A stretch of 64,000 nt of DNA from Heterodontus francisci (taxonomy: Eukaryota), in NCBI RefSeq assembly GCF_036365525.1, contig NC_090371.1, positions 94,334,211 to 94,398,210 on the forward strand, given 5' to 3'. Every line of letters starts with the position of its first letter. Position 1 is the stretch's first letter. The translations under genes were made by a program, and so were the position numbers. Positions 12,401 through 61,168 of the stretch are shown here, one piece after another. The notes under the pieces were generated by a model that saw nothing but the letters and a program-made list of their open reading frames with translations, was not told where the DNA came from and searched no databases.

Positions 12401-15400
12401 TCAGGTCAGATGCTAGGAATCCTGTGGCGAGTAACTCTCCTCCTGACTCCCCAAAACCTGTCCACCATCTACAAGACACAAGTCAGGAGTGTGATGGAAT
12501 ACTCTCCACTTACCTGGATGGGTGCAGCTCCCAACAACACTCAAGAAGCTCAACACCATCCAGGAAAAGCAGCCCGCTTGATTAGCACCCCATCTACAAA
12601 CATTCACTCCCTCCATCACCGATGCACAGTGGCAGCAGTGTGTACCATCTACAAGATGCACTGCAGCAACATGCCAAGGTTCCTTTGAATCCGCGACCTC
12701 TACCATTTAGCAGGACATAGGCAGCAGATGCATGGGAACACCACCACCTGCAAGTTCCCCTCCAAGGCACACACCATCCTGACTTGGAACTATATTGCCG
12801 TTCCTTTACTGTCGCTGTGTCAAAATCCTGGAGCTCCCTTCCTAACAGCACTGTGGGTGTCCCTACCCCACATGGACTGCAGCGGTTCAAGAAGGCGGCT
12901 CACCACCACCTTCTCAAAGGGCAATTAGGGATGGGCAATAAATGCTGGCCTGGCCAGCGTTGCCCACATCCCATGAATGAATTTATTAAAAATTGCTGCA
13001 AGCATTTAGGAGCGTGTCAAAAGAGCTACTGATTTTTGGTTCCATTATTTTAGGGAGAAAGCTACTGGTCTTCCTGGTGTAGTTTCTACTTCTTTTCAAA
13101 TCAAAAGTATTAGCATTTTGGAACCAAAAAAAGGCTCATTGTAACAATCTGTAAGCATACTGTATGTAGAACTGGTTATGCCACAATGCCATTTCTAACC
13201 AAACATTAAAAATGTAGATTCCATCTCAACCCAGAAACACTAAGCCTGTTGTAAAATAGGTCAATAGTGACCAGACACATTTCAAAAATAAAAATTATAA
13301 AAAATAGACATTTTTGGGATTTGAAATGTGAAAGAAGCCACTAACTGTCGCATTGAGCTGGTTGTGAACATGCACATCTTTATTATTTCAGTACTGCTTT
13401 GCTGGAGAGGCATGTATACACAGATGAACTGAAAAATTTGCAGCTGTTGTTCAACTGTAACTGGTCCAAGCAACTTCCTTACACTTCCGATCAAGAGTAT
13501 TTTCCTCACTAAACAAGTTTCTGATCAGTGTGACTTAGTCCTTTAATATATTCTCTAATGCTGTTATTATAAACATGCTCCACCAGGTATCTTTCACAAA
13601 GGATTGTGGAGAAGATGAGGAATGCATCAATGACCTGACACTTAGTGCCCAGGCAGACTTGACGGGTAACAGGTAATAATGGTTAAAATATAAAATGTTG
13701 ACACAAATATCTACTGGCATTTCATGTTTATTTTTATTATATTCGATCTCCTCTGTGCCCTTTGATGAGGTAATGAAAATAATGTTTCTTTTATTTCATG
13801 GAAGCCATAGTTTCTTTGTTTCTCACGATTCCAACCAAAGAGCTGCTTCCATTTGCCTTTAATTGCTTCACTCTTTATCCTTCTTCACATATTCACATCC
13901 TTATTCTCTATCCCCTGACCTCAAAAGTAACTTCTGCATCTCCTCCATTGAGAAAGCTGCCTTCAAGAAGCTCTTTGGTGTTAAACCAGTACTTTTAAGC
14001 TCAACAACTCTAAACTCTCCATAAGGCTCAATTCCTTTCAGGACACGAATACTTTTTCCCATATCTGGAGAAGCTCCTCTTACTCGTATGGACAGGATAC
14101 AAGTAAAAGTTTTCCATTTGAGACAATTTCTCTCTCATCTCTAGCTTTCAATCTCCCCATCTCTGTCAAAACATTATTTTATCTCTCAATTTTATCCACA
14201 CATCTATGCTTATTACCCCTTTGAACTTTTCTTTATTGTTACTCCTAAGCTTCGAATATGCTATCCTGCCTAATCTTCATCTTCTATAATCATTCTGTTG
14301 AAATCTTTTACAGTTGCACTTATTACCCAAGACCCAAGTTGTGGAACTCCTTATCTCCTTTGGTCTTTCCATCCTCCGATAATCTTCAGGCCTTTAAACC
14401 TCAAGCTTAGCATCATCTAATTATTGCCTCTTGATTTATCTCGACTTCACACCTCTGACTATATTCTTTTGTGGTTACTATTTTAGCCAAAAAAGCCAGT
14501 GTGAGTAAATAGGCGAACTGAAAATGATAAACCTGCTATCTTTTAAAGTGCAACGTTATCCTGTACCAGCTTCTCAATGAAAACTAGTATTTCTTCATCT
14601 TAAAATGACCGATACTGATCTTAAATTACAGTATGCATCCTCACATCGTCCAACCCGATCAGAAAAAGTTCAGTCTGGCAATTAAATTAATAAACCAAAA
14701 GGAAAATGCCTACAACTCAAGATTAGCTGTGACTTTTTCCAAAAATATCTATTTCACTGGAGTTGAGGTAAGGGAACACCAGTCCGACTAATGTGTTTTG
14801 TGTCTGTACCAATGCATTTGGAGGTTCTAGATGCTTTCTTATTGATCCATGATAACTACATGATATTATTTATCATGTGTTTAGCAGGGGCCAATTAGAT
14901 CCAAGACCCTTAATGAAGAAACCTCATCTGCCAGTTTTGTTTTGCTGCTAGTAAATTCTCTGACTACTGACTGAAAAAAAACTGGGGTATGTTTGAATGT
15001 TGGCTGCACGATTCCACTTCAAATATTATTTACACAGCAGGACACTGACATTGTGTTGCACTTGACTGAGTGACAGTGAGTGAGCAGGCAGTAAAAGTAC
15101 ATGGGTGGCATGGTATTGACCTTTAGCCTGGCGAAGGCATTACTCCATCTCTGTGTTCGATCCAAAGAAAGTAGAAAGAAAGTCTTGCATTTATGTAGTG
15201 CCTTTCATAACCTCTGGACATCCCAAAGCACTTTTACAGCCAGTCGAGTACTTTTTGAAGTGTCGTCACTCTTGTAGGAATTTGAAGGTGGCGTTCTTAA
15301 AGCACTCAAAGGTTTATAGTTCAGGCTTGGGCTGAGAAGTGGCAAGTAACATTCGTACCACACAAGTGCCAGGCAATGACCATCTCTACCAAGAGACAAT

Positions 15401-18400
15401 TTAGCCATCTCCTCTTGACGTTCAGCAGCATTGCCATCGGTGAATCCCCCACTATCAACATCCTAGGGGTTACCATCAACCAGAAACTGAACTGGAGTAG
15501 CCATATAAATGCTGTGGCTGGAACAACAGATCAAAGGTTGCGAAATCTGTGGCGAGTACCTCCTCCCCTGACTCCCCAAAACCTGTCCACCATCTACAAG
15601 ACACAAGTCAGGAGTGTAATGGAATACTCTCCACTTGCTTGGATGAGTGCAGCTCCAACAACACTCAAGAAGCTCAACACCATCCAGGAAAAGCAGCCTG
15701 CTTGATTGGCAACTCCATCCTAAAGGCCTGCTCAGGTCGGGAAATAGAACCCGACCCGAACCCAACCAATCCACAGCGTACCCGAGCCCAACCCGGCCCA
15801 AGTCCCTCCAATGCTGCCTGAGCCCAACCCTGCCTGACCTCGACCCGACCCGCCCATCCCTTTACTTACCTTCTGACTGGGAAACTCCACGAAGCTGCAG
15901 CGCATGCTGGTCACGTCATAGTAACATCACTCGCTGACTGCGCAGACTCAGTTTCATCCTGGACTCCCAGCTCAGGTAAGTTATTTTTATTTTTAATACT
16001 TACCAGGAGAGCACTTATAGAGTCATAGAGTCGTACAGCATAGAAACAGGCCCTTCAGCCCACCGCGTCCATACCGACCATAATGCTTATCTATACTAAT
16101 CCCACCTGCCTGCATTAATTCCATATCCCTCTATGCCTTGCTCATTCAAATACCTGTCCAGATGCCTCTTAAATGTTGCTACTGTTCCTGCCTCCACCAC
16201 CTCCTCAGGCAGCTCATTCCAGATTTCCACTATTCTTTGTGTGAAAAATTTACCACTTTGATCCCCTTTAAACCTCCTCCCTCTCACCTTAAATCTATGC
16301 CCTCGAATTTTAGTCACCCCTACCATGGGAAACCGACTCTGGCTATCTACCCTATCTATGCCTCTCATAATTTTATATACCTCTATCATGTCCCCTCTCA
16401 ACCTCCTTTGCTCCAGGGAAAACCAACCCAACCTATCCAATCTCTCTTTATAACTCAAGCCCTCCGAACCAGGCAACATCCTTGTGAATCTTTTCTGTAC
16501 TCTCTCCAGCTTAATCACATCTTTCCTGTAGTGCGGCGACCAGAACTGTACACAGTACTCCAAATGCGGCCTAAACAACATTATGTATAACTGTAACATG
16601 ACGTCCCAACTCTTGTACTCAATGCCTCGGCCAATGAAGGCAAGCATGCCATACGCCTTCTTCACCGCCCTGTCTACCTGTGTTGCCACTTTCAGGGAAC
16701 TATGTACTTGCACCCCAAGGTCTCTCTGCTCAACAACACTCCCCAGGGCGCTGCCATTCACTGTATATGTCTTGCCCTGGTTTAACTTCCCAAAATGCAT
16801 CACTTCACAATTGTCTGCATTAAATTCCATTTGCCACTCCCTTGCCCACTTTCCCAGTTGATCTATATCCTGTTGTAACCTTAGACAACCTTCTTCACTG
16901 TCCACTATCCCACCAATTTTGGTATCATCTGCAAACTTACTAATCATGCCCTTTACATTCACATCCAAGTCATTAATATATATGACAAACAGAGGGCCCA
17001 GCACCGATCCTTGCGGCACACCACTGGTCACCGGCCTCCAATCTGAAAAACAACCCTCCACTACCACCCTCTGCTTCCTATCACCAAGCCAATTTTGTAT
17101 CCAATTTGCTAGCACACCCTGGATCCCATGTGTTCGAACCTTCTGGACCAGCCTACCATGCGGGACCTTGTCAAAGGCCTTGCTAAAGTCCATGTAGACA
17201 ACGTCCATCGCCCTGCCCTCGTCAATCCTCTTGGTCACCTCCTCGAAAAACTCAATCAAATTCATGAGACATGATTTCCCACGCACAAAGCCATGCTGAC
17301 TATCCCTAATCAGACCATGCCTTTCCAGATACATATAAATCCTGTCTCTCAGAGAATCCCTTCCAATAACTTTCCCACCACTGATGTAAGGCTCACCGGC
17401 CTGTAGTTCCCTGGCTTATCCCTGCTGCCCTTCTTAAATAAAGGCACAACATTAGCTCTCCTCCAGTCTTCCGGTACCTCACCCGTGGCTAATGATGATA
17501 CAAATATCTCTGCCAGGGCCCCAGCAATCTCCTACCTTGCTTCCCATAGCATCCTAGGATACACCTGGTCAGGCCCTAGGGATTTATCCATCTTACTGCG
17601 CTTCAAAACCTCCAACACCTCCTCCTTTGTCAAGTTGATATGCTCCAGGATATTGGTGTTCCCTCCCTTGAACTCACTAGCTTCCATCACCTTCTCCATG
17701 GTAAATACGGACGAGAAATATTAATTTACGACCTGGTCCATTTCCTGTGGTTCCACACATAGATTGCCACACTGATCCTTAAGGGGACCTACTCTCTCCC
17801 TAGCTACCCTTTTACTCTTAATATACTTATAGAATCTTTTAGGATTCTCCTTTATCTTATCTGCCAGGGAAATCTCATGGCCCCTTTCGCCCTCCTAATT
17901 TCCTTCTTAAATGTAGTCCTACATCCCTATACTCTTCGAGAGACTCGCTCGATCCCAGCTGCCTATACCTGACATATGCCTCCTTCTTTGTCCTGACCAG
18001 ACCCTCAATATCCCTCACCAACCAAGGTTCCCTAAACTTGCCAGCCTTGCCCTTCCATCTAACAGGAACATGCCGGCCCTGAGCTCTTCCTATCTCACTT
18101 TTAAAAGCCTGCCACTTGCCAGATGTCCCTTTACTTGTAAACAGCCTCTCCCATTCAACTTTTGAGGGTTCCTGTCTGATGCCATCGAAATTAGCCTTCC
18201 CCCAATTTAGGACTTCAACCTGAGGACCAGTCCTATCCTTTTCCATAACTATCTTGAAGCTAATAGAGTTATGGTCACTGGTCCCAAAGTGCTCCCCCGC
18301 TGACACATCAACCACTGCCCAGCCTCATTTCCTAAGAGGAGGTCGAGTGTAGCCCCTTCTCTAGTAGGGCCATCCACATACTGCTTCAGAAAACTATCCT

Positions 18401-21400
18401 GGACACACCTAACAAATTCTTCCCCATCTGATCCCTTAGCACTAAGGCAGTCCCAGTCAATATTAGGGAAGTTAAAATCACCTACTATTACAACCCTATA
18501 ATTCCTACACCTATCTGTGATTTCCCTACATATATGCTCCTCCACTTCCCTCTGACTATTGGGGGACCTATAGTATAATCCCATCAAAATGATCACCCCT
18601 TTTTTCTAAGTTCTACCCATATGGCCTCGCTGGACGTTCCCCCCGGGATATCCTCTCTAACTACTGCCGTATTGTCCTCCCTATTCAATAGTGCAACTCC
18701 CCCTCCTCTCTTACCTCCACCTCTGTCACGCTGGAAGGATCGGTACCCCGGAACATTGAACTGCCAGTCCTGCCCATCCCTCAACCACGTTTCCGTAATA
18801 GCTATAATATCACAATCCCAATTACTGAGCCATGCTATGAGTTCATCTGCCTTACCTGTAAGGCTTCTTGCATTAAAGTAAATGCAGTTTAGCCTACCAG
18901 ACCTTCCACGCTCCCTGTCCTGCCCCTGCCCGGCCTGTCTACTGGACTTGCTTGCTTTAACCTCTACATTTGCCTCAACTATCTCATCTGAGAGATGACT
19001 ACTTTGGGTCCCACCCCCTTGCAAGACTAGCTTAAACCCTCCCGAGTAGTACTAGCAAACCTCCCCGCAAGGATATTGGTCCCCCTCCAGTTTAGATTCA
19101 ACCCGTCCTTCTTGTACAGGCACCTCTGCACCAGAAGAGATCCCAATGATCCAAGTAGCTGAAACCCTCCCACCTACACCAGCTCTTCAGCCATGCATTC
19201 ATTTGCCTAATCCTCCTATTCCTACCCTCACTAGCATGTGGCACAAGGAGTAATCCTGAGATTACAACCCTAGAGGTCCTGCTTTTTAACCTTCTGCCTA
19301 ACTCCCAATATTCACTTTGCAGGACCTCATCTCTCTTCCTGCCTATGTCGTTAGTACCAATATGGACCACGACCTCTGGCTGCTCACCCTCCCCTTTCAG
19401 AATGTCCTGCAGCTGCTCCAAGACATCCTTGACCCTAGCACCAGGGAGGCAACATACCATCCTGGAGTCTCGTTTGTGGCCACAGAAACATCTATCTGCA
19501 CCCCTTACAATAGAATCCCCTATCACTTTAGCTCTTCCAACCCGTTTCCTCCCCTGCTGTGCAGCAGAGCCCTCCGTGTTGCCACGAACTTGGCTGTTGC
19601 TGCTTTCCCCTGGGAAGTCATCCCTCCCCAATAGTATCCAAAGCGGTATATGTTTGAGAGGGGGATGGCCACAGGGGACTCCTGCACTACCTGCCTGCAC
19701 CTACTACTCCATCTGGAGGTCACCCATCTCTTTTCTGCCATTGCAGCCATTACCTGCGGTGTGACCACCTCACTAAATGTGCTATCCACGACGTCCTCAG
19801 CATCGCGGATGCTCCACAGTGAATCCACCCGCAGATCCAGCTCCGTAATGCGGGTAGCTGGTAGCTGCAGCTGGATACACTTCCTGCACACATGGTCATC
19901 AGGGACACTGGAAGCATCCCTGATTTCCCACATAGCGCAGGAGGAGCATATCACGGGGCTGAGCTCTCCTGTCATGACTTACCCTTAGATTAATTAGTTA
20001 CTCCCTTAATTAAAAAATACCAATTACAATAGGGGCCTTGTTCCACCCACTCCAATCTAAAGTCCTTAAAAAAAAACACTTTCGTAGTATTCACCTTATC
20101 ACCAGAGATTTTTTTCCAACAAAAAAAAACTTTCCCCTTATTTTTTTTAAGATATTCTAACAGCTGCTACTCACCAACCAATCACTTTGCAGCTCTCCTC
20201 TGAAGTCACTGTTTGCCTTTTTTTTTCAAAACTCCGGCGCGCTGGAAGAGTTTGACTGCTCTCCGCTCTGCTCCTCTCCTCTCCGCTCCACTCCCGGAAG
20301 GTAAATACAGTTTAGCCTACACACTTACCGTGTGTGTCCGGCTCGACCCGACCTGAGCACGACCCGGACTTGGCTCGACCCGGCCCGAGCCCAAAAGATG
20401 GGCCCGACCCGACCCGAACCCGACACATGTCGTTGGGTCCTGTCGGGTTCGGGTCGGGTAGCAGGCCTTTACTCCATCCATCACCCTAAGCATTCATTCC
20501 CTTCACCACCTGCACACCATGGCAGCAGTGTGTACCATCTCCAAGATGCACTGCAGCAACTCACTAAGGCTCCTTCGACAGCACTTTCCAAATCTATGAA
20601 CTCCACCATCTGGAAGGACAAGGGCAGCAACTGCCACCTGAAAATTCCCCTCCAAGTCACAGACCATCCTGACTTGGAACTATATCACGGTTCCTTCATC
20701 ATCGCTAGGTCAAGATCCTGGAACTCCCTCTGTAACAGCACTGTGGGTGTATCTACACAATATGGACTGCAGCAGTTCAAGATGGCAGCTTACCACTACC
20801 TCTTTAAGTGCATTTAGGGATGGGCAATAAATGCTGGCCTTGCAAACACGCTCACATCCCCATGAATAAATAAAAAAAGGTTATAGGGCCCTCCTCTAGC
20901 ACCAACTTGCTTCCTTCTGTTAGATGTCTTATCCTGCAAGCAGAGGAGTAGTGTTGAGAGGTCGGATGCATTAGGAGCAAATACAGTGTTGCCCAAATGG
21001 CCATCCTGCACCCATCTCATGTTTGGGTGCATGAACTTGCATGATGTACGTGAATTTTGAGTGAAGGATCTTTTTATTGGGGCCCTTGTAACATGTAATT
21101 GTGCCAAGACTGTTTCAGGGATTAGTTGCAACTTAAACTTGTGAAACACTGCAGCAGGGGCATGTAAGGCAAGCATAAAAGAGCGGTAAGGTAATCGAAG
21201 TGCTTTACATTGGGGAAAGAAAACAGTTTGCGAATAGTATATTTAGCCCATTTACTTTATGTACGTTACTGGTAGGTTACCTTACCTTGGCTGCTTTATT
21301 CAAACTAATTAAATCCTTCCTAATTTGGCAGTGTCACTGGGTAGTGTAGGTAACATTCATGCATTGTGTCACCTCCTTTTCCCCTGCTTCATGTAACAGT

Positions 21401-24400: not shown

Positions 24401-27400
24401 TTGGGTTCGACTTCTGGGTTCTCCCGCACTTTACCAACCTCTCTCAATCCCGGCGAGTCAGACAAGTTAAAATCCAGCCATAGTAAATGTTAAAGGGGAG
24501 GACCAGAAGCAAAGAACATAAACTGATTCAAGCCACTCGAATGCATGTTTCTGAAGAGAAGAGATTGAGAGATGGGGTTATGATCAAGCAAAAATGCATA
24601 GACTTAGCAGAATTAATGGCCATTGCCTGTCTCTTTTTTCAAGTATGTTTCTGCTATATTTCTTTTATCTTCTGTCTCATTCTCAGGTTTCTTTTAAGAT
24701 GAAATTCGAATTCAATACCTCGCATCTCCTTGGTGATGTTTACTTACACTTGGAGGCAACAAGGTACAGAAAAACATTTAATAATTTTGAAGAGTCTGGG
24801 ATCAATTTAATGTCGTATTATGGCAAAAAGTATATGCAGAACTGAGAATAGAAGTTGCATGTTAAAATTTATTGAATAAATAATGTTAATTTAATGAACT
24901 CTGCATTCTGGAATGCGGACTCGAGGTCCTAAAAGAAGAACCAAGATTGTATTTTAATGCAAAAATTTACAATGTGACATTTTTGCAGAATCATTTTGAG
25001 ACTGTAGGAACTTACTTTTTTAGATAAAATACACCAGACTGAAATGACTAAATGTTGATTTGATTTTAAGCTGAAAGTACAGAAGACAGTGATTCTGTGA
25101 AATATAAATTCTATTTTTAATATTTCAGTGACAGTAGTGAACTAAATGAAACTTTAAGTGACAATGAAGTCACCATCTCAATTCCAGTATTGTATGAAGC
25201 TGGGCTGCTCTTTTCAAGGTAACATTTACTTACAGATTGAGAAAATCAAGCTATCATTACCCACTTTGCATCTGCTAAGGCTACATCAATATAAGGTGCA
25301 CATGAAAGCAAAAAATGATGGCATATCAGAAGGCACTATCCCAAATTTGTCACATGGTTGTGTGAATACTGCTGTATACAAATGTTAGCAGTACAGTGGG
25401 TGTCCTACATTGGTAGGACATCAACAAAGAATGATGTTTAGTGTTTGAAACTCATGTTGTATATTGTTAGACATTTAAAAGTGGTTTTAGTTAGCCTTTC
25501 TGAAAGTTAACATTATATAAAGCTCGAAAAAAAATTACAAACATGTCAAATGTACATTAACTAGTGGTGCATTGAATTGATAGAATATGAATAATACCTA
25601 CATTGTCATCATAGACAATGCTCGGAATGATTATGTATAAAGCACAAATCCATAATTTTGCCCATCTCTGACAGCATTGTAATCTCAGTTACAAAACTGG
25701 CCTCATGACTGCTGGAATTGTCGAGACAGTAGCATACCTTATCAACAAGGCACAGTAATTTTGCCAGTCTCACTGCAATGTGCAGTAATGTGTGTGCGAC
25801 TCTGCATTCATTTTAGTCAGACTGAAAGACAAATACAAAGCGAGACATCTGCTTTCTGTCACTTAAGTGCTTTTTCTTCCTTGTCTCAGGATTATAAAGG
25901 ATGACCATTTTAAAATAGCAGCTAATGATACAATTCCTGATGTTATTAAAAGCATAGAGGAGATTGGTGATGCAGCAGACATCACTTATATGGTAAGGAA
26001 AAGCAACATTTTAATTGAACAGAAGGTAAAGCACGAACCAGAGATTAAATTGAACACCTGTTTGTTAGCAAGTTATTATCAGTTGTTTATCAAGTCAGAA
26101 TACCATGTTTGCCCTGCATTTTTTAAACTATATGTAGAGTACTATAGTGAATACTAAATATAGAAAGAAAATGCGATTATGTTATGCCAACTATTTTTCA
26201 GGAAGTTGTGGAAATGACAAGGATGTTGTTCTTGCCAATGTTTTTGCCTGTGAAAACCGACTGGAAAGAAATTAACAGTACAATTCAGGAAGCTTGTTGT
26301 ATGGATTGGGGAGATAACTGATGCTAAAAATTTCCAGACATGGCCACAATTTTTAAATGATTTGCATGAAATTGCTCCCCTTCTGGTCACCTGTAAGGAA
26401 TGGCCCTGATCTTTGAGTTGTTCTCTCTGGTGACAAAAGGCTACTTGGTGTCCGTAACTCACCTGCTGGAAGATAATGACCTACTCTAAGGCAGAGTCCA
26501 GGATATTCCTTCTGAATACCACCCATTTTTGGATGCATAGGGATGGAAAATAGAAGAAAATGTGACAGGAAGGCCTCCTGCTGAATCCCTGCCCCTGATA
26601 ATAACTGGAGAAATTTTGCTCTGTTCGCCATTGGTGGAACACAGTCTGCTGTGCCCCCATTCCTCCATATGTAAGTGACAGGAGGAAAACGGGACATTTT
26701 CATGACATCGCCTCGACAATGTCTCCCAGAAACAATGGTGGTGAAAATTGATAATACCGAAAATGGGCATGAGGATCGCAATGCACAATTACCCGTGCCT
26801 GCTGCTTCCAATGCAGGCAGCCCACATACTTTGTGCTGCCTGCTAATTTTAATACTTGTAGTATGCAGACAGAATTAAGTGCACTGTTGAGTGGCTGCAC
26901 GACTGAGCAAGGGGTGCAAACTCGTGAGAGGCTAGCACTAGTTCAAGCTAGCCTGCACTACATAAAGCAAGCTTGCACCTCTTAAAGAGGCAGTGCATTG
27001 TGGCTGGAGCAGGTGGTGGAATTCATTCTACAACTTATCTGATTCTGACCTGGAAAAGACAGTCTGGACTGGCTGGCTGACAGGTAACAGCAAAGCACTA
27101 GCAGAGAGGCAGTGGTGGGTGGATGAATGTTGTCACCCTGAGCGAGGACAGCATGTTTGTACTCCATGGAGCCACTGCCACTCCCCTGGGTGATGCCTCA
27201 GCAATCCTAGCAATGTTTTGGAGGACATATTGCTGGGCTACTTTGTTATCCTGCAATCCCTTTAACCACTGGTATTTGCCGCCACGGTGACAGCAGTCTG
27301 AGCTTGCTTGGCAGCGTTGAACTTGCAAAACAGCAGTCTGAGCTTCCACTGCAGCATTCAGACATTGGCTGGTTTCTGCTTGTGCTGCAATGGAAGCTCA

Positions 27401-30400
27401 AGTATCAGCCATCAGACGCTGCATCATGGCTGGGTCCACAGTGTAGTAGTGGAGTTGGAAAGCATGGACTGCAAGCTCTGTGAAAAGCCCCGTGTCAGAT
27501 TGGTGCCAACATCCTCCATGATCCTTGATATTGAGCACAGGCATTCTGGCAGGCATGCAATGCAACATGCATTTCATTGTATAAACCCATCAGCAGTCTT
27601 CTATATGCCGTCCCATCAAAGTATTCATTCAAGTCCTCTGCAGCAGAACTCATGCAGGCCACTTGTGGCCAGTGTCTCACCACGTGATGATCCCACCTCT
27701 CAGGTAAGCTCTAAAAGTGTGAGCAAGTGTCAGTATCTGAGCTGGTGGCTGCAGGTATGAGAGCAAGTGATGGTGTTTCTTCTTCATCACTGTCTTCCAG
27801 TTCGTCAACCTCTTGTCCAGACTGCCTCCCCAGATTCCAGTTCTTTGGTATTTGAAAGAAGAAAGGCACAAGGGTAGGATTGTAGTGAGGAAAGGAAGAG
27901 GTACATCCTTACACCATCTACAGCTTGTAAATCAGAAAAGATTATGGGATGAGGGAGAAGGAGGATTCATTATGATAGTGTCATCGTTAATGGTTTCAGC
28001 CCCAGCTGCTGATCACAGCTTCAGTCATGGCTGCTCCAATGATACAGAACACCGTCTCCTCCATGGTTGTGAGGACATGCAGCCCTGCCTGCAATGCCGG
28101 TTAGGTGCTTTTCCTCCAGTTATTCACCACCTTATCCTGCAAGGGAGAGGCAAGTGAGGTTCGTAGTGCAGTTTGTAGGACGTGGTATTTGAAGATTCAT
28201 TCACTGATCTTGATCACTCGTGTGAAGTCATTGAACTTCTTCTGCGGGTCTGTGGAATCGACTGCTGACCACAGCAATCTTCCCACTGCCTTTGCATTGT
28301 TTGTCTGGAGGGCCTCCTGTGGATAGATGACATCTCTCCTCCTTACCACAACCTGCTTCAAGGCCACCAGTGCATTGTTGGAAAATCTTGGAGCACGCTT
28401 TTCGTCATCTTGTGCCATTCTTGTGTCTTTCCCATGTCAAAATCACTTTTAGAAAAACTCCCAGCACCTGCTCCAGCCAAAATGCGCCTCCACTTTAAAA
28501 GGTGCAGGCTGGCTTTAAGTGGTGCACTTAGCACTGGCTGCATGCTACAATCATTTAAATTAGAAAGCAGTACAGAATTTGTGTGGAAAAATAATAGACA
28601 CAACGGGCATGGGTTAATCACGCATTGTGATCCCCAAATGCATTTTCGGGGTTATCGAATTTTGCAGCCTCTCTCTTTTAAACTCTTTCAGCCTCTGAAA
28701 CACTGCAGATGGCAGACTCCCAGTGGAAGGTCAAAAAAGCATCAAGTCCACCACAAATATATAATTAATCTATAATAATGGTCCTGGCAAAATGAATGGG
28801 AGAATGATAGAGGCCCAATGGCCATAAGTCCAGCCTATCCCACTGCTAATAGAAGCCTCACCAATGAGAGAAATTTAAGGACTGAATTTCAACCTAACTA
28901 TATCACAAAACTGGTATTTGGAAATGAAAAGTAGTGATTTGAATAGATCTTGTCATCTGAGAATGAAAATTTTGCTAATGCCAATTTTGGTGAAAAGACG
29001 AGTGTGTACAAATTGGGATATTTTTGTATGTGTGCTGGCTTTTCACTAAAATTAACAACAGAAAGAATTTCACCGCACCACAGGCAAGTTTCTACAATGA
29101 TTATTGTGCAATGACTCAATTAGTGACATTGTAGTGCCGATCGTTTCTGTCTGAGAAAATGTGCTATGTTACCACTAGTAATTAAAACAATTCTGATCGG
29201 ATCAAATGCTCCTAAAATGCTCTCTTTTTGTTTTACTCCCAGATCCACAATGATGGAGTTTTTCCAATTTCACATCTTAAAATGACTATAACATTCCCAT
29301 ATATATCTCCTGAAAACAATACTCTTCTATATTTGACTGGAATGGCATTTTCTTCCGTAAGTTACCATTTTACAGTTTGATGGTTGATTTTGTTTTTTCA
29401 CTCAGTACAGTAAATACGGAGCCCGAATGTTCTTGGTATTCTCTCTAAAATTTAGAACGATATTTGATTGGAGTGTTATCAAAGGACACAAGGGATTATT
29501 CAGTGATCTCTGCTCCCAACGTGAGGCTTCACTTAGTAGAAGCATTCTTTGGAGAATCTGCATCACAATTCTGCAGTTTATCTCTGATCTGCAACACATT
29601 ACTGCAGTTTATCTCCAGATCTGCAGATTCTATATGCTGGTTTCTATTTTCTGACTGTCTTTTTAACACCTAAAAATCTTCGTCATCATTTAAATGCTGC
29701 CATAAATGTTACTACAAAACAATGGTCTTCAATAAAACACAAAAATGATAATAAAGGGAGTGAGTGGCTGAAAGTGATTGCAAACAAATAGCCTCATCTT
29801 TTTCTTTTGGGCCTCCTTATCTCGAGAGACAATGGATACGCGCCTGGAGGTGGTCAGTGGTTTGTGAAGCAGTGCCTGGAGTGGCTATAAAGGCCTATTC
29901 TAGAGTGACAGGCTCTTCCACAGGTGCTGCAGAGAAATTTGTTTGTCGGGGCTGTTGCACAGTTGGCTCTCCCCTTGCGCCTCTGTCTTTTTTCCTGCCA
30001 ACTACTAAGTCTCTTCGACTTGCCACATTTTAGCCCTGTCTTTATGGCTGCCCGCCAGCTCTGGCAAATGCTGGCAACTGACTCCCACGACTTGTGATCA
30101 ATGACAATGTGATCAAACAAATAGCCTCATCAGTAATGTGATAAAGCAGTGAAGTGAATCTCAACATTGTCATCGAAAGAAATTGGAGCCAAAAATCCGA
30201 GGCCTAAGCAACCCAGCATAAGTGCCAGGATGCACCCAGCCATGACCTTTGGGCAAGCTGGGAATCCCATTGGAAGGGTAACCTATCCAAAAAAGGGAGC
30301 TGAAAGCCCCCTAGAAACAGCTTTTTTGTGTCCAACGATCACCTTTAAGGAACTGAATAAATCTCACACCTTTTAAAAGACTTTGAGATTCCTGGCCAAG

Positions 30401-33400: not shown

Positions 33401-36400
33401 TCTTACAGGGCATGATAGGGTTGCTGTAGATAGGGTGTTTCCCCTGGCTTGTGAGTCCAGAACAAGAGGACATAATCGCAGAATAAGGAGTAGGCCATTT
33501 AGGACTAAGCTGAGGAGGAATTTCTTCACTCAGAGGGTGGTGAATCTTTGGAATTCTCTATCCCAGAGGGCTGTGGAAGCTCAATCATTGAGTATGTTCA
33601 AGACAGAAATCGATAGATTTCTGGAGACAAATGACATCAAGGGATATGGAGATAGTTGGGAAAGTGGCATTGAGGCATATGATCAGCCATGGAGCAGGCT
33701 CGATGGGCTGAATGGCCTACTCCTATTCCTATGTTCCTATGACAGTGAAGGAATGGTGATTTAGTTCCAAGTCAGGATAGTGTGTGGCTTGGAGGGAAAC
33801 CTGCAGGTGGTGGTGTTCTGATATTCCTGCTGCTCTTCTTTCCGGTGCGAGAGGTCATGGGTTTGGAAGTGGCTGTCAAAGAAGCCTCAGCGAGTTACTG
33901 CAGTGCATCTTGTAAGTGGCATGCACAGCTGTCACTGTGCACCAGTGATGGGGGAAGTGAATGCTTAAAGTGGTGGATGGCGTACCAATCAAATGGGCTG
34001 CTTTGTCTTGGATGTTGTCGAGCTTCTTGAATGTTGTTGCAGCTGCATTCAGGCAGGCTAGTGGGCAGTATACTATCACACTCTTGGTTTGTGCCCTGTA
34101 GATGGTGGACAGGCTTTGGGGAGTCAGGGATTGGATCACTCACCACAGAATTCCCAATCTCTGACTTGCTCTTGTAGCCACAGTATTTATATGGCTGGTC
34201 CAGTTAAGTTTCTGTGTTTTTTTAATAGACAGCAAAATTACAGGCTGACAACGGCACAGCAAAAGACTAGCCATTGATTCTATCTTTTAACACAACAGCC
34301 CTCTGATACCATTACATTGCCAATCACAATTTTAGGTACATAATTATTGTTTTATGCATAATTCAATGATTTCACTTCGTTGCTGCCTCCCATGGGGTTT
34401 TTAGTCAGTTCTGAATGTATCTGTATTAGCCAATGTTAATTCATGTATCTGGCATTTGCTGTTTCAAAACTTATTTCTATTTATTTTGTTTCCACCTGGC
34501 AGAATAATTTAGTCAGCTGTCATGACTCACTATTCATGGATCCCCTGAAGATACGAACTAAAAAACCTCACAAACCAGCCCCAGAGGAGGAGCATCTCAT
34601 AAACACCATTGGGGTAATTACAGTCTTGTCAGACTTTGTGTATACACAGAGGATAGAACAGGGGTACAACAGTGCATTGAGTGTAGTTTTGGACTAACAT
34701 CACAGAGGTTGAAAATTCAAATATTGCCATGACATGCTGTGAAATGGAATTGAATAGATCTTGTAATTTGTGAGCTGGTTAACTGGGAAAAAAGGCCACA
34801 AAGCTAGATTTTAGTAAAACCCTCATTGGTTCACAGATGTCATTTAGGGAAGAGAACCTAGTGCCCCTAATCAGTCTGATTATACTCCCACAATAGTTTT
34901 TTTTTCATTCTTGGGATGCGTGCATTGCTGGCGAACCCAGATCTTATTATCCATCCCTAGTTGCCCCTGACCTGGTGGTGATGGACCTTTTTGAACCATG
35001 GCAGAGCATGTAGTGAAGATGCCCCCACAATGCTGTTAGGTAGGGAATACCAGGGCTGTCTCTTGATGCCCATTGAGTTGGCCGAGCTAGCAATTCAGCT
35101 GTAAAAGCAATTGCCACCACATACTCAGGCAACTATAGATGTGACCATGTCAGTGATGCACGTACCCTGAGAATAAGCAAAAAAAACCAGAATGGTAGTG
35201 TTCACATCATTTTAATGTTATCTTTACATTATTAAGAACAGAAAGTTATGTTTGTACGTGATTCTATTTCCTGTAGGTAACTCTACTGAAAAATAGTTAT
35301 TCACTGACAAACATTTGCGAGACAATTGACAATAACCTTTTCAACATTTCCTAACAGATGTGTAAAAATAATGCAGGATGTGCCTACTTTTTCTGCACTA
35401 TATATCCATCGAGTCTGGTCCAATTTAATATGTCACTAAGAATATGGAAACCTACGTTTATTCAAGTAAGTGAAATGGATTTACTGGTCACAGTTTGCAT
35501 AAATAAAAATATAATAAATTCTTCTGCCAATATTACCATTTCTGGCTTCAGTTTGTTTTATATTTCAATTACTTTTACGTTTCCCTTAGATGCTCTCATC
35601 ACAGCCGCTTATAGTTAAACTATCTTCTTCAGTAGGAAAATCAAGTTTTTATACGTTACATTGAGCTGAATTTTACTGGGATGGCATAAGTTCCACCATT
35701 AGGTCTGAAAGCAAGAAGAGACCTCGCTTCAGCGGGTGGTGGTACCCCTGGGCTGCATTTTGCTTGTGGCAACCAAATGGTTGCCGCCAGGCCTGTTATT
35801 CTATTAAGGATGCTGGTCCGCCCCCAAGAGCTGCCAGCCAATCAGAGGACAGGCAGGTCAGCAGCACCACTGCTTAATGGTCGGGCACATTCAAAGACAA
35901 GTGAGCTCTCTAAGACAGGTAACTTATGTTGGGGGTAGCCAGGGCCATTGCCACGGGGCAGCCATTGCTGCCAGGGGGCCCTCCATGGACCATGGAGTGT
36001 CTGAAAAGGAAGTCAGCACAACAGAAGCCACTGGGAGGCTGCCAGGTTTCCCTGGGCGGTCTCCTCCACGGCGACAAGTCCCTCAACATGGGCAAAATGC
36101 CCACTGAGGTGGGAGGGGGGCCTTCATTGGCTCAGTTGACCTCCCAGTGGGCATTCAATCTGCCAACTTTCCCACTGCTGGCAAAATGGCATGGCGCCAG
36201 GAAGACGTTGGTCAGCAGCCCCTGCCCCTCCCCTCCCCCCCAAATGCCTTCCCGTGCAATTTTGCTCACCTCCCACCTCCAGTCAACCCCAAAAGGGCCT
36301 GGAAAATTCTGGCCATTCTCTCCTTGGCAGGTTGATTAGAGATTTGTTTCTTCAGGGCAGGTCTGCTCCTTTTCCCTATCTAAGCTGCAAGATGAAGCAT

Positions 36401-39400
36401 TCTGTTCTTGTCAGTTCTCTTTTGTAACAATCAGAATCAAAGCAAATCCAAAACACAAAATAACCCAAACTGTGGAAATTCAAATTAATTTGCTGAATAT
36501 CTAAATTTGGTTCAGTTTAATTGCTTTGCTTTTAAATAGCATGGTGAGCTCAGTTTCTGATCCCACATCCTCTCCATGACTAAAACCGTCTAATTCCAGC
36601 TCTGTAACATTGCCTGTCTCTACTCCTGCCTTAACTTAAGCTTCTGTCAAAACCCTCATCCATGCCTTTGTCACCTCTGGATTTGAGTATTCTGATGCTC
36701 TACTGGCTGGCCTCCCATCCTCTGCCCTCCAGCTCATCCAAAATTCTGTAGAAAGGTCATCAACCTGAAACATTAACTCTGGTTCTTTCTCCAAGATGCT
36801 GCCAGCCCTGCTGAATATTTCTAGCATTTACTATTTTTATTTCATTCAAAAAACCTTGCTGTCCTTATCCTAACCTGCACTATGTCTAGCTCACTCATCA
36901 CCCCTGTGCTCAGTGCCTCAGTCCCCACAATGCCTCCAATTTCAGGCAACATCCTGACCTGCTGAGTATTTCCAGCACCTTCTGTTTTTATTTCAGATTT
37001 CCAGCATCTGCATATTTTGCTTTTACCTCCAGTTTAAAAAATTTCTCCTCATTTTAAATTCTGTTCATGGCCTTGCCCCTCCCTATCTCTAACATCCTCC
37101 AGCCTTACAACCTTCCAAGAACTCTGTGTTCCTCCAACTCTGGCTTCTTGTGCATCCTCCACTCCCTTCACCCCACCTGAAGCCCTAAGCTTTAGAATTC
37201 CCATCCTACACCTCTCTGCCTCTCCAGTTCTCTCTCCTCATTTAAAACCTTCCTTAAAGCCTACTTCTTTGACCAAGTTTTTTTTTTATCACCCGTCTTC
37301 TACATCTCCTTTAATTTAGTGTCAATTTATGTCTGATTATGCTTCTGTGAAGCTCCTTGGGATGTTTTTCGACCTTGAAGGTTCTATATAAATGCAAGTT
37401 GTTGTTGTTATTGTTGATAATATGAATAATAATATATGAATAATAATGCCATCTGCTATTTTATGTACAGCATGATGTGTGGGTGTGGATACAGTGGCAT
37501 AGAGATTGTTACTGGTAATGCAGAGGCCTGGACTAATGATCCAGAGACATGAGTTCATATCCCAGTTCGTGAGTTCAATTCAGTTAATTAAATAAATCTG
37601 GAATAAAAACTAATATCAGTTTCATGGTCACCATTACTATCAGATTGTTCTAAAAATCCATCTGGTTCACAAAGGTCCTTTAGAGAAGGAAATCTGCTGT
37701 CCTTCCTTAGTTTGGCCTATATGTCACTCCAGACCCACAGCAATCTAAGCTGCCCTCTGAAATGGCCTAGCAAGCTGGGCTTTTCAGCAATATTCTGTGA
37801 ATTAATAAAAGTGTATATGCACGATAATATTAGGTGAGGAGTTCCAAGACTGAATTACAGAGATGTGTATTGGTAGTTTTTTTCAGTTGGCAGTCCCATG
37901 GAGCATCCATATAAAAGCAAAATACTGCGGATGCTGGAAATCTGAAACAAAAACAAGAAATGCTGGAATCACTCAGCAGGTCTGGCAACATCTGTGGAAA
38001 GAGAAGCAGAGTTAACGTTTCGGGTCAGTGACCCTTCTTCGGAACTGACAAATATTAGAAAAGTCACAGATTATAAACAAGTGAGGTGGGGGTTGGGCAA
38101 GAGATAACAAAGGAAAAGGTGCAGATTGGACCAGGCCACATAGCTGACCAAAAGGTCACGGAGCAAAGGCAAACAATATGTTAATGGTGTGTTGAAAGAC
38201 AAAGCATTAGTACAGATTAGGTGTGAATATACTGAATATTCAGTATATTCACACCTAATCTGTACTAATGCTTTGTCTTTCAACACACCATTAACATATT
38301 GTTTGCCTTTGCTCCGTGACCTTTTGGTCAGCTATGTGGCCTGGTCCAATCTGCACCTTTTCCTTTGTTATCTCTTGCCCCACCCCCACCTCACTTGCTT
38401 ATAATCTGTGACTTTTCTAATATTTGTCAGTTCCGAAGAAGGGTCACTGACCCGAAACGTTAACTCTGCTTCTCTTTCCACAGATGCTGCCAGACCTGCT
38501 GAGTGATTCCAGCATTTCTTGTTTTTGTTCCATGGAGCATCCAGTTCCTAATAGCTCTATTAGAATCACTAATAGTCTAGCACTGAATGGAGGACAATAA
38601 CATGTTATAGTGATAATAGTGCATCTGCTAACTTCTTGTTAGCTCAGTGGTGATAAACAGACTTGTGGTAGTGATGTATTCCTTCCTTCCTTTTAGCTAA
38701 ACGTAAAATAGCAGTAGTTTCAAATTCAAGTCAAACTGCTCTATAACCTTCTCGTTACAAAGCCTTGTTTAGGCCATTTTCTCACCCCTATAAATCTATT
38801 TAGCATCTGGTAAAATCATGAAGTCAGCTTTGTACTGTTAGAATTGTGTGGTTACTCAGGTCTCACTTAGCAGCAACAAAACAACCAAACTGAAACTGCA
38901 ATATCTTTAACTATTCTAAGACATAATCTTTTTTTTAATTACAGGCAAATTTTAATTCAATAGGCTTAATTATAACTGCGACTCTCACAATTGAAGACTC
39001 GCCGCTAGTAGTACTGAGCAAAGCAATGGAAAGAAGGACTGTGAGTAGTTATCTTCTTACTTTATTTATCATTACCTATGGCTTCTGAGGATTTGGGTTT
39101 TGACACCAGCTGGCTCTCATTAAAGGCTTGTTTGTCCATCATAACCTCAGAAAATGAACCACAAAAATGCCAAGGATAAGATATAAACAGTGTCTAGGTT
39201 TCTATGGCTCTTCCACTGAAGCTATGGTGTATATGTGGGCAAATCCCTGTAGAAATCCCCCTGTGGATACAGTCAACTAAGATGGAGATTGTAATCACTG
39301 AGTATAAGGAGTCATTCAGTGTGGAAGCTGAGACAAGAAGGAAAGTACCTCAGAGAGGAACTCAAGATGGGGCTTGAGGGCAGTAGACAATCAAAGTATC

Positions 39401-42400
39401 AAAAGAGAGGCAAAAGTGATGGAACAGAGTTGGGCGCTCGAAGGAGAATAGGGGAGAGGTCAAAGTGTAATTTGCTGATGAGAACTATGCTGCCACTGTG
39501 GTGAATTGGGCAGACCAGGAGATGGAAAGTATAATCAGGCAGGGTTAGAGTAAGAGGCAAGATATTGCCACCAGTGAGTTAGATTTCATTCAAAGCCAGG
39601 ATGTCAACAAATCATGCACAATAAGATTGTGGATGGCTTGGGTCTTGTGCACGAGTGAACAAATGTTCTGGAGGGAACTGCGGAGAAGGGCAGTGACTGC
39701 TCCAAGAGGTAGTGGTGGGTGGCATGAATGGAATGGGAAGAAGGTCGGCAATGTTCACAACCAGTTGGTTGTGAAGACTGGAGAGAAAGGATTATGGGGC
39801 AGTTGGGATTACTGTTCTTAACCAGGCAGTGATGGGTTTCACAATGGAGTCTTTGTAGAATGCTAAAAGAAGCACAGAAGGTAGTCGTGGGCTTGTTCAG
39901 AGGGAAGTCTAGCCTGTACAGTTGCAGGAAAAAATACAGGATGAAGAGCAGTGATAGGCTGAGGTAGGGATGTTAGGAGAGGCAAAGTACCTGAGAGGGG
40001 TGAAATGAAAGGTGGCTTATCTGGGAGAGTAGAGAAGACAGAAGTGCCTGGGAAGGGCCAAGAAGGGAAGATGGAAGTAATGAGCTTGTGTTGGGGAGGC
40101 AGCCAAAATGCATCTGGAAATAGGAACTAAGGGAATTGAAGATGCTACTTTTACATACGGAGCTGATGATTTCCACAAGCTGAAATGAAAGGAAAATAGT
40201 CTTATCCTCTCCATAGGAAAACTGGGATTTGTAACATTGTGGGAGGATGTTCTTTGTGGGGCAGATGAGAAATGTGGAAAGGGCATGGCGAAACATCAGA
40301 AGGGGAATTATACCCTCATTGCAATACTATATAATATGCTGCTGTAACTCTCTATTAGCATGATGCGCAACTCCTATTAACAGCCATGAGAGGTCAGTCA
40401 CTTAAGCCCCGACTTGAACTTGATGCGAGAGTCACGTGAGCAGGATCAAGGTGAATAGCAAACCATTCTGACCTTGGCAGTGTATGGCCCAGGAGACTGG
40501 GCCTCATCAATCTCCGGCCCAATGCTGACAGGAAGTGGCAGCTGGCCAGCCTACAGGAATGGGATGTTGAACAGTGTTCTTCTGTACTCCCACTAACATC
40601 TATAATGAGCACCTTCATAATAACTGCTGAGAAGTATTTGTGCCATAGAATCAGACCCATGTTACTCCCACACTGTCATCTTTCAGTCTTGTCATTATTT
40701 GCTTCCGCTCCGAGCAAACACTCATATTCCTAAATTAACAATTCTCCGTGCAAGCTCTCCTACTCATGTACATGTTCGACCTAATCAACTTTAGTGACCA
40801 CTCCCATGTTGTCAATCAAGGCTATCTCTGACTGCTGTTCCAAGCATTTTCTCCCTCTGACCCATCTGCCCCCCACCTCCTGAACCCACTCTGCCAGATA
40901 TAATTCCCCTGCAAAGCTAGGAGAGTGCATCTAAATTATACAAAGTGACGAGCTGCTAGGAAACTGGCTGAAGTAAAAATTGTATCCTTCATGTTGGCTG
41001 AAATCTGCCGTGCCAAATATATAATGAAATTCTGCAATAGTGGAAGATTCAGGCTTTCTGTAATTTTGTAAGGTTTGTCCCCCTTACAGGAACGCACGTG
41101 GCAACAAAGTTCAGTTGTAAAACTACTTTATTGAGGCAAAGTCAGAACAAATTTATTAAGTTTCATGCAGATGACAATAAACTCTGGCAATGATTTTCAG
41201 TTTAATGCGGTGTTACAACCAGGTGAGGAGGGGGTCTCAGGCTCCCTTACGCCCCTTCTGCGGTTTGATTGCAACAGGGTTTATCCTTTTCACACAGTGA
41301 TTTAACTTACCACCTCAGTGAACTCTTGCTCCTGTTCCTCTAAGTTAATGCAAATGAACCAATCAAACAGGTTTTCTTGAGTTTAAACAAGCAAGTTGCA
41401 AGTTTATTATTCTTATCACTCTAAACTGATTAAAAANNNNNNNNNNNNNNNNNNNNNNNNNNNNNNNNNNNNNNNNNNNNNNNNNNNNNNNNNNNNNNNN
41501 NNNNNNNNNNNNNNNNNNNNNNNNNNNNNNNNNNNNNNNNNNNNNNNNNNNNNNNNNNNNNNNNNNNNNNCTGAAGCTTAGTCCCAGAGTCCTTAGCTGA
41601 AGTCGTAGTCCTGAGGTCCTCGCTAGAACACGTGTACGGGTTGGTCTTCTCAGGTTCTGGAAGGCAGAAGAGGGGATTTATTCTTGCCCTCAGGTTGCTG
41701 ACTGTAAGGATCATAGAAAGTTTAAGGCACAGAAAGAGGTCACTTGGCCCATCGTGTCTGTGCTGGGTCTGTAGACATGTCTTCCACCAGCTGCAGCTTG
41801 AGGCTTCTCTGGATCTCTACTGGAGAGAGAGAGGGAGAGAGAGAAATGCTGTTCCTTTGATGATTTACAGTTACTGTCTGCCTTCTGAGTCACCGCACAA
41901 ACTCCCAGGGGTGCACAAGCAGTCACATGACACCACCCCTTTGTGTTTGAATCAGAATCTTCCAGAATGGTCTCTGAAATTCAAGGCTGTTCTCGAGTTG
42001 TTCAGACGTACTTGGTGTGTGTGGGCGGGTGGGGGGGTTGGCTCATTCAAAGTCAATGGTGTTGATGGCTTTTGATGATCAACATTGACAACGCTATCTC
42101 AGATAAATGAATCAGAAAGCACCCCATTGTTCTGGCTAGGCTGAGTAATCACATCTGCCTCCATCTTAATCCTTTGTTTTTTTCATATGCAAATTGTGTG
42201 TGGCCATCTTGGCTGCTAGCTGCTCTGTTTGTAAAAGTTATTTGTAACAATGTCCAGTAGAAGGCTCAGGCAAAGGTCCACATGATTTGGCACGTAGGGT
42301 TTTCATCACAATGGGCTATAGCACCCGTATTAAGTCTTCTTGGAAGAATGCCGTCTCCTCTTGCTTCTTTGGTCTTCAGGCTTCTTTCTCTTTCTCTCTC

Positions 42401-53324: not shown

Positions 53325-53539
53325 AAAATAAAAGCAAAATACTGTAGCTGCTGGAAATCTGAAATTAAAACAAAATGCTGGAAATACTCAGTAAGTCTGG
53401 ATCCATCTCTCCATCTGTGGAGAGAGAAACAAAGTTAACGTTCTGATAACAGTCACAGACATGGAACGTTAACTCTGTTTCTCTCTCCACAGATGCTGCT
53501 AGATATGCTGAGTATTTCCAGCACTTTCTGCTTTTATAT
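53325..53539. mobile_element. Short, degenerate fold-back Penelope-type element
   Basis: Inverted arms (gctggaaatactcag...catctgtggagagagaaac.aagttaacgtt and aacgttaactctgtttctctctccacagatg...ctgagtatttccagc); imperfect flanking repeat caacccatcctct / caacccacccact. Confidence 0.7.
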
Positions 53540-59659: not shown

Positions 59660-61168
59660 CGAACATAAGAATTAGGAGCAGGAGTAGGCCCCTCGAGCCT
59701 CCTCTGCCATTCTTCAATAAGTTCATGGCTGAACTGACAATTGCACATTTCCACCTACCCCGATAACCTTCTACACCCTTGCTTATCAAGAATCTATCTA
59801 CCGCTGCCTTAAAAATATTCAATGACTGCTTCCACCGCCTTTTGAGGAAGAGAATTCCAAAGACTCACAACCCTCTGAGAGAAAACATTTCTCCCCATCT
59901 CTGTCTTAAATGAGCAAGCCCTTATTTTTAAACAGTGAACCCTAGTTCTAGGTTCTCCCACAAGGGGAAACATCCTTTCCACATCCACCCTGTCAAGACC
60001 CCTCAGGATCTTATATGTTTCAATCAAGTCGCCTCTTACTCTTCTAAATTCCGACGGATACATGCCTAGCCGGTCCAATCTTTCCTCACAAGACAGCCCA
60101 CCCAGTCCAGGTATTAGTCTAGTAAACCTTCTCTGTACTGCCTCCAACGCATTTTTATCATTTCTTAAATAAGGAGACCAGTACTGTACACAGTACTCCA
60201 GATGTGGTCTCACCAATGCCTTGTATAGCTGAAGCATTACCTCCCTACTTTTGTATTCAATTTCCCTCAAGGTAAACGATAGCATTATTAGCTTTCCTAA
60301 TTACGTGCTGTACCTGCATACTAACCTTTTGCAATTCATGCTCTAGGACACCCGGATCCCTCTGCATCTCAGAGCTCTGCAATCTCTCACCATTTAGATA
60401 ATATGCTTCTTTTTTATTCTTCCTGCCAAAGTGGACAATTTCACACTTTCCCGCATTATACTCCATTTGCCAGGTCTTTGCCCACTCACTTAACCTATCT
60501 GTATCCCTTTTTAGCCTCCTTATGTCCTCTTCACAAAATTACTTTCCGACCTATCTTTGTGTCATCAGCAAATTTAGAAACCATTCCTTCAGTCCCTTCT
60601 TCTAAGTCATTTATATAAATTGTAAACGTTGAGGCTCCAGCACAGATTCCTGTGGCACACCACTCGTTACATCTTGCCAACTAGAAAGTGACCCATTTAT
60701 GCCTACTCTCTGTTTCTTGTTAGCTAGCCAATCTTCTATCCATGCCAATATGTTACCCCTTACACCATGAGCTTTTATTTTCTGCAATAACCTTTGATGT
60801 GGCATCCTAGCAAATGCCTTCTGGAAATCTAAGTACAATACATTGATTGGTTCCCCTTTATCCACAGCACATGTAACTCCCTCAAAGAACTCCAATAAAT
60901 TGGTTAAACATGATTTCGCTTTCACAAAACCATGTTGACTCTGCCTGATTATCTTGAATTTTTCTAAATGCCCTGCTATAACATCTTTAATAATAGCTTC
61001 TAACATTTTCTCTCAGACAGATGCTAAGCTAACTGGCCTGTAGTTTCCTGCTTTCTGTCTCCCTTTTTGAATAAAGGAGTTACATTCGCTATTTTCCAAT
61101 CTAAAGGAACCTTTCCCAAATCTAGGGAATTTTGGAAAATTAAAACTAATGCATCAACTATCTCACTA
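59660..61168 (-). mobile_element. CR1 LINE, RT to 3' end, frameshifted
   Basis: ORFs 60611-61006, 60257-60466 and 59809-60285 with SQHGF, YLDFQKAF, GVPQ and LEAVQRRFTR. Confidence 0.92.

Follow-up and report, generated by a model that had tools for sequence, protein, structure and literature searches.

A 584-bp zero-spacer palindrome in the horn shark genome, probably a truncated Penelope-like element insertion

The locus described here raises two questions: what kind of element left two mirrored arms with no spacer between them, and was the mirror half copied as part of a self-complementary mobile unit or made during the insertion itself? We examined it in a stretch of 64,000 nucleotides from Heterodontus francisci, referred to below as the window, to which all coordinates belong. 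Our reading is that the insert is a 5′-truncated, inactive stump of an endonuclease-bearing (EN+) Penelope-like element (PLE), which we hold with a probability of about 0.87, and that its palindrome was likely built at insertion and is not a distinct mobile unit.

Architecture of the insert and support for its junctions

The insert is made of two reverse-complementary arms of 292 bp with a spacer of 0, together a palindrome of 584 bp. The arms differ at 3 of 292 pairs (38094/38381, 38077/38398 and 37988/38487), an identity of 99%, and the left arm carries a further 36 nt that have no partner in the right arm. Flanking the whole are exact copies of the 14-bp word CCATGGAGCATCCA, the target-site duplication (TSD), which is absent elsewhere in the window on both strands; the chance of an exact 14-mer over the 289 offsets considered is approximately 1.4e-6. 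The palindrome at 37946-38529 is thus confirmed as real and as the initial annotation had described it, with zero spacer, about three mismatches, a 36-nt extra end and an exact TSD. The claim that it inserted as a single event is also supported, because the exact duplication bounds the entire unit. With an arm divergence of 1%, the insert is young, and for a PLE insertion of this known layout it is unusually long and clean. Its features, with the next downstream exon, are as follows.

37896..37909, plus strand: left TSD, 14 bp, with its exact copy at 38530 and only these two occurrences in the window
37910..37945, minus strand: 36-nt tail, the 3′ end of the element, left arm only; the same end is seen in other window copies and in loose contig ends of DNA run X1
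37946..38237, minus strand: left arm, a 5′-truncated copy comprising the 3′ region with a pLTR-like end, in minus-strand sense; from reverse complementarity and family comparison
38010..38046, minus strand: left-arm minimal type-I hammerhead-like motif with a U4C core; from pattern scan and folding
38235..38240, no strand: junction AATATT, self-complementary and native to the family template; from contig ends in runs X16 and X17
38238..38529, plus strand: right arm, the inverted copy of 292 bp without the tail; from reverse complementarity, with tail-less window copies ending likewise
38429..38465, plus strand: right-arm minimal hammerhead-like motif; from pattern scan and folding, with features compared to those in a portion of PMC4209133
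38530..38543, plus strand: right TSD, 14 bp; exact 14-mer, contained in X1 record 8
38945..39041, plus strand: next downstream candidate exon of an integrin-alpha-like host gene, not part of the element; its end was read by eye from the donor site

Palindromes of this kind could be produced by fold-back chimeric reads during assembly. None of the contig pieces listed spans the palindrome centre, and assemblies are known to be troubled by inverted PLE structures, as sections of PMC8557442 describe. However, a chimera would be expected to mirror the flank too, and instead unique sequence resumes past the exact TSD. The arms also differ at three sites, and their asymmetry corresponds to the tail of the family. 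Contigs of X1 reach both junctions (records 3 and 8), each with only 25 element letters, which is below the 31-letter bridging rule, and X1 may be the source sample and hence not fully independent. The alignment of record 3 includes 19 other letters plus 10 gaps, and record 8, at the right junction, covers 38505-39400 at a depth of 8 with 1 other letter. No empty target site occurs among the 15 of 1,244 contig joints listed. Since unique sequence resumes after the TSD and the arms differ, we regard an assembly fold-back as very improbable.

A repeat family with the anatomy of Penelope-like elements

Read on the minus strand from 38237 to 37910, the insert corresponds to the 3′ end of a repeat that is abundant. 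A family profile gave 12 matches at 10 loci in the window, although it was built from 9 window stretches that match by construction. Two of these loci (the insert itself and 53328-53538) hold inverted pairs, and the remaining 8 of 10 are single-orientation fragments. On their 3′ side the copies stop at one of two points, the end of the tail or approximately 36 nt before it, and their 5′ starts vary: the tailed 3′ end is common to the copies at 36953, 49999, 53328 and 61529, and those at 32044, 36744 and 53452 end without a tail at about the same place as the right arm. The same pattern of 5′-truncated copies with fixed 3′ ends appears in X1, where 94,329 contigs align to a 2.4-kb stretch (all of its repeats together) and loose ends pile up at 37909, 37911 and 37913 in 638, 968 and 1330 contigs, respectively. 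Of 7 loci searched for TSDs, the insert gave the exact 14-mer, four gave candidates of 10-14 bp with 1 mismatch, one gave a 7-mer at chance level and one gave none. The word CATCC, present at 37905, 36735 and 53317, belongs to the target duplication, or to target sequence next to it, in three insertions and occurs also in the element's own tail, which could reflect a target preference or chance. Farther along, the window has an assembly gap of 134 N at 41437-41570.

The second inverted copy, at 53328-53538, is older, and its two arms, one with the tail and one without, reach unequally far in the 5′ direction. Its tailed arm stops inside the hammerhead, whereas its tail-less arm holds the whole core. 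The TSD candidate there is weak (10 bp with 1 mismatch, the best of a search).

Long inverted repeats bounded by a TSD would also be expected of a foldback or MITE-like DNA transposon. In such an element, the typical copies would have symmetric terminal inverted repeats, yet the ends here are asymmetric by 36 nt, and the predominance of single-orientation loci that share their 3′ ends and differ in their 5′ ends is the pattern of a retrotransposon. The hammerhead motif is also conserved across copies with changed paired stems. We therefore consider a DNA transposon highly unlikely.

What the family does resemble is the published anatomy of EN+ PLE insertions, which lends support to the Penelope-type origin proposed initially. 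In the portions of PMC8557442 that bear on this, PLE insertions are 5′-truncated, often have an adjacent inverted truncated copy and carry a 30-40-bp tail at one end; the same structural traits are listed in part of PMC8969392. Rotifer examples, in the relevant passages of PMC3846280, show an inverted pLTR, a 31-bp tail, TSDs of 8-10 bp and abundant palindromes at head-to-head junctions. Our insert likewise has an adjacent head-to-head inverted 5′-truncated copy with a palindromic junction (53328-53538 being a second case), a tail of that length class at one end only, a short TSD, which at 14 bp is longer than those in the rotifer excerpts, and a minimal type-I hammerhead motif in its terminal repeat that deviates at U4C. 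The 36-nt extension had been recognized as an unpaired end, but its identity as the known PLE tail had been missed. The layout is shared with the complex insertions of Penelope/Poseidon and Neptune, which combine a head-to-head inverted truncated copy, a palindromic junction, a 30-40-bp tail at one end and a TSD. It differs from them in that the insert has no ORF and both arms are truncated at the same point, making the whole insert one palindrome. Poseidon of Anolis (PAc), as presented in part of PMC11167929, resembles the family in having two 3′ ends a tail apart, as two start sites of reverse transcription (RT) predict, and a hammerhead lying near the copy's 3′ end; this likeness is one of structure.

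Searches for a coding parent did not reach an RT or GIY-YIG protein, so the family membership rests on structure. There was no GIY-YIG domain among the 47 window ORFs scanned (of 56 listed) and no RT or GIY-YIG in any of the 34 proteins that read the element's 3′ frame (representatives of 56-276 aa). The family sequence gave 0 matches in three scans of metagenome contig and viral contig collections. We also considered the open frame that runs through the tail as the start of a PLE ORF and rejected it: the single longer match is a predicted host-gene isoform, and the protein searches yielded only host-gene or spurious ORFs, 18 of the 34 representatives having been looked at individually. The longer match, the predicted RNF14 isoform P0002 of Heterodontus francisci, opens with 37 residues translated from this subfamily, and the family is thereby assigned to a cartilaginous fish, the horn shark. 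The places in the window that concern P0002 are 37911-38024 on the minus strand and 38484 on the plus strand. The arm holds an acceptor-like pyrimidine tract and a CAG, and gene models take it as an exon for this reason.

The RT fragments found in the window are of LINE type or without class, and none adjoins the insert. Those of LINE type lie at 555-1235, 11801-12685, 16099-19700 and 60614-61012. The element at 16099-19700 also has AP endonuclease and GDSL-esterase-like pieces, which we take to be typical of CR1/L2-group elements.

The mobile-unit reading, the hammerhead-like motif and the host gene

In the reading that goes back to the initial annotation, the 620-bp insert is a distinct, non-autonomous, self-complementary unit that is copied whole and presents a ribozyme on either strand. 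It is indeed a clean, TSD-bounded, non-coding unit with the motif intact in both arms. If it were copied as such, other copies should share its centre; these would yield no contig joint and hence would be uncountable with contigs, which leaves room for this reading. Among the 15 joints listed, however, other centres dominate. Twelve of them lie inside the insert (the other 3 concern another repeat), and 11 of the 12 connect 38040-38046 to 38427-38456 or 38023 to 38430, the remaining one connecting 38034 to 38476. Most sit on or close to a mirror centre at the 5′ edge of the hammerhead, approximately 190 bp per arm from the 38237/38238 centre, and short fold-backs of the family with other centres are therefore common. 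The template also continues non-palindromically past the centre in organisms D and E (see the final section), and together with the other centres this speaks against a distinct self-complementary unit.

We note separately that four window copies begin within a few bases ahead of the hammerhead core (32036, 36744, 53446 and 61526). These starts and the X1 joints from 38040-38046 to 38427-38432 all fall near the 5′ edge of the hammerhead, which suggests that this is either a favoured stopping point or the place where the terminal repeat is bounded on its 5′ side.

The motif itself bears on the second half of the claim. It spans 37 nt at 38429-38465 on the plus strand, mirrored at 38046-38010 on the minus strand, and has a minimal type-I shape: a helix I of 4 bp, the core CCGAAGA, an extra A, a helix II of 5 bp with G10.1-C11.1, GAAA, a palindromic ACGU and U at position 17. 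The pattern scan and folding support a hammerhead-like motif in each arm, as had been noticed, with a folding energy no better than that of shuffled sequences (z -0.79, 43 of 200 shuffles as stable). Rfam returned no hammerhead among 23 matches (E up to 10), all of which were below gathering scores and mostly generic hairpins. Active hammerheads have the core C3-U4-G5-A6-N7-G8-A9, and both arms depart from it at position 4 (U4C). According to part of PMC3088659, U4C is a natural hammerhead variant with considerably lower activity in vitro. CUGAUGA, the canonical core, is retained by the window copies at 32044 and 61529, whose paired stem differs.

Comparison with the minimal type-I hammerheads of metazoan PLEs in a portion of PMC4209133 shows a shared 4-bp helix I, an extra nucleotide after A9, G10.1-C11.1 and palindromic positions 15.2-16.2. 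That portion also describes paired motifs that lie on opposite strands and are separated by 100-700 bp, as here. The differences are our U4C core, the 5-bp helix II and the masking of the motif by the inverted arm. Such minimal hammerheads are described there as showing no cleavage as monomers and low cleavage as dimers, and the part of the supplements of PMC4209133 that was searched had 0 matches to the motif or to shark names; passages of PMC6155905 likewise gave nothing on sharks. With the arms head-to-head, the antisense copy precedes the motif in a transcript of either strand, and we predict that it masks the motif. In the full unit, whichever strand is read, helix II has a predicted probability of 0.0, as it does in plus-strand transcripts that stop shortly after the motif; a single arm reaches 0.13. 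With the U4C core, these predictions run counter to a ribozyme on either strand, and a functional two-way ribozyme is unlikely. Experiments reported in a section of PMC11167929 indicate that PLE insertion in vitro proceeds without a need for hammerhead cleavage, hammerhead mutants having no effect. The motif is inherited as part of the element end, would be masked in any read-through RNA and is likely idle here.

Non-LTR retrozymes offer a further comparison for a hammerhead-bearing unit. Like the insert, they are short, non-coding and PLE-related. In the available part of the account (bioRxiv 10.64898/2026.07.22.740005), they are head-to-tail tandems with two or more hammerheads on the same strand, whereas the arms of the insert stand head-to-head, its motifs are on opposite strands and it has both a tail and a TSD. 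We rejected assignment to this class, and the lack of head-to-tail tandem structure also weighs against the mobile-unit reading, which we judge improbable overall. We return to the reading of the insert as a PLE stump whose palindrome was built at insertion.

With respect to its surroundings, the right arm ends 415 nt before the AG acceptor at 38944. The following exon is one of six candidate plus-strand exons in the window (5743-5853, 25129-25191, 25890-25992, 29243-29356, 34503-34613 and 38945-39041), and a contig of organism C (run X12) covers 38938-39119 with 21 other letters. One of the six, the 29243 exon, matches Pfam Integrin_A_Ig_3 with an E value of 0.0033, below the cut-off; exon 38945-39041 had no Pfam match, and 0 of 2 PDB searches gave a match. 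The predicted exons point weakly to an integrin-alpha host gene. The intronic position 415 nt upstream of an exon stands as initially annotated. The more specific name ITGA1 is the label of the initial annotation; it is plausible but did not come out of our searches.

If the intron is transcribed, the insert would form long double-stranded RNA, as had been suggested, since the read-through hairpin has predicted energies of -575 and -587 kcal/mol. A near-perfect intronic hairpin of approximately 290 bp is a likely substrate for A-to-I editing, which is true of any intronic inverted repeat pair.

How the mirror half arose

The centre of the palindrome is the self-complementary word AATATT, and self-complementary hexamers begin at 5 of 290 positions in the arm. 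In organism D (run X16), two contigs track the left arm as far as 38240, beyond which they continue in different sequence. In organism E (run X17, record 29), a 688-nt contig aligns to 38235-38526 with 3 differences and has 386 further upstream letters that do not align. Because the contigs of both organisms continue past the centre, the template carries AATATT natively and extends beyond it; this evidence comprises 3 contigs from two other organisms, read from their alignment ends.

The run from organism E has 44 contigs aligned to the stretch, as compared with 2,342 to 94,329 in the other three runs, and record 29 matches the arm with only its 3 differences in 292. Recent horizontal transfer, contamination and a sparse young family are options for this match.

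We propose that the mirror half was made during a single insertion by two cDNAs primed from both nicks and joined at microhomology, a model we favor with moderate confidence. Two observations reported in part of PMC11167929 favor it: in vitro, PLE protein nicks and extends both strands, and reverse transcription starts at two sites that bracket the tail. First, the element protein would nick both target strands 14 nt apart, giving rise to the TSD. Second, each 3′-OH would prime RT of the element RNA, in one case from the tail end and in the other from a second start 36 nt upstream; two start sites at this distance would place the tail on one arm only. Third, both cDNAs would stop short; being identical in sequence, they could pair with one another only through a self-complementary word, in this case the native AATATT. 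Finally, fill-in and repair would yield a zero-spacer head-to-head palindrome.

The alternative is self-priming, in which the same PLE stump arises when one cDNA or antisense template folds back, copies itself and stops 36 nt short. Junction palindromes are read in this way in part of PMC3846280, and fold-back priming was also the mechanism named in the initial annotation. The two arms share their 5′ end point and have an identity of 99%, as self-copying would give. Moreover, the cDNA end can form a hairpin of 5 bp at -1.1 kcal/mol, its best. However, with this hairpin a loop of 5 nt would remain, and the centre would be 10 nt shorter than the one seen. The observed register would instead demand a loop of <3 nt or a 1-bp stem, and forcing one cDNA end into the latter costs +2.8 kcal/mol. 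In comparison, two cDNA ends annealed over AATATT give -3.4 kcal/mol, all of these energies being small and calculated with protein ignored. On the basis of energies and register, the joining of two cDNAs at the native hexamer is a better fit than a single cDNA primed by folding back.

Two further points concern where the arms stop. Self-priming leaves the fixed stop at the tail boundary unexplained, and this boundary matches the second RT start site in the portion of PMC11167929 cited above. In addition, the copy at 53328-53538 has extra 5′ sequence on its tail-less arm. Each of its arms holds sequence that the other lacks, the tail in one and the hammerhead core in the other, so one self-copying cDNA is insufficient to produce both, although a later central deletion could be an alternative cause of this asymmetry. 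Taken together, we consider self-priming, the main rival, rather unlikely, and the joining of two cDNAs primed from both nicks is the account we carry forward.

Extending this account beyond one locus is more tentative. We speculate, at somewhat less than even odds, that shark-like genomes hold very many young inverted PLE stumps whose junctions record how they formed, and that PLE inverted repeats arise by twin target-primed reverse transcription from both nicks as opposed to the self-priming proposed in 2013. In the mainly non-subscription literature, we found no account of twin priming with microhomology for inverted Penelope copies. As a single locus the insert matters little, being a further truncated PLE insertion whose layout has been described before. 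Its junction on a native palindromic hexamer and its tail on one arm nevertheless fit the two start sites and both-strand priming seen in vitro. If twin priming is true, with most junctions falling on native palindromic words or inverted microhomologies and with mutually exclusive arms, an open step in the PLE cycle would be settled, and the centre at 38235 and the 53328 copy would be clean examples of it. Thousands of such copies could be mined for how PLE inverted repeats form.
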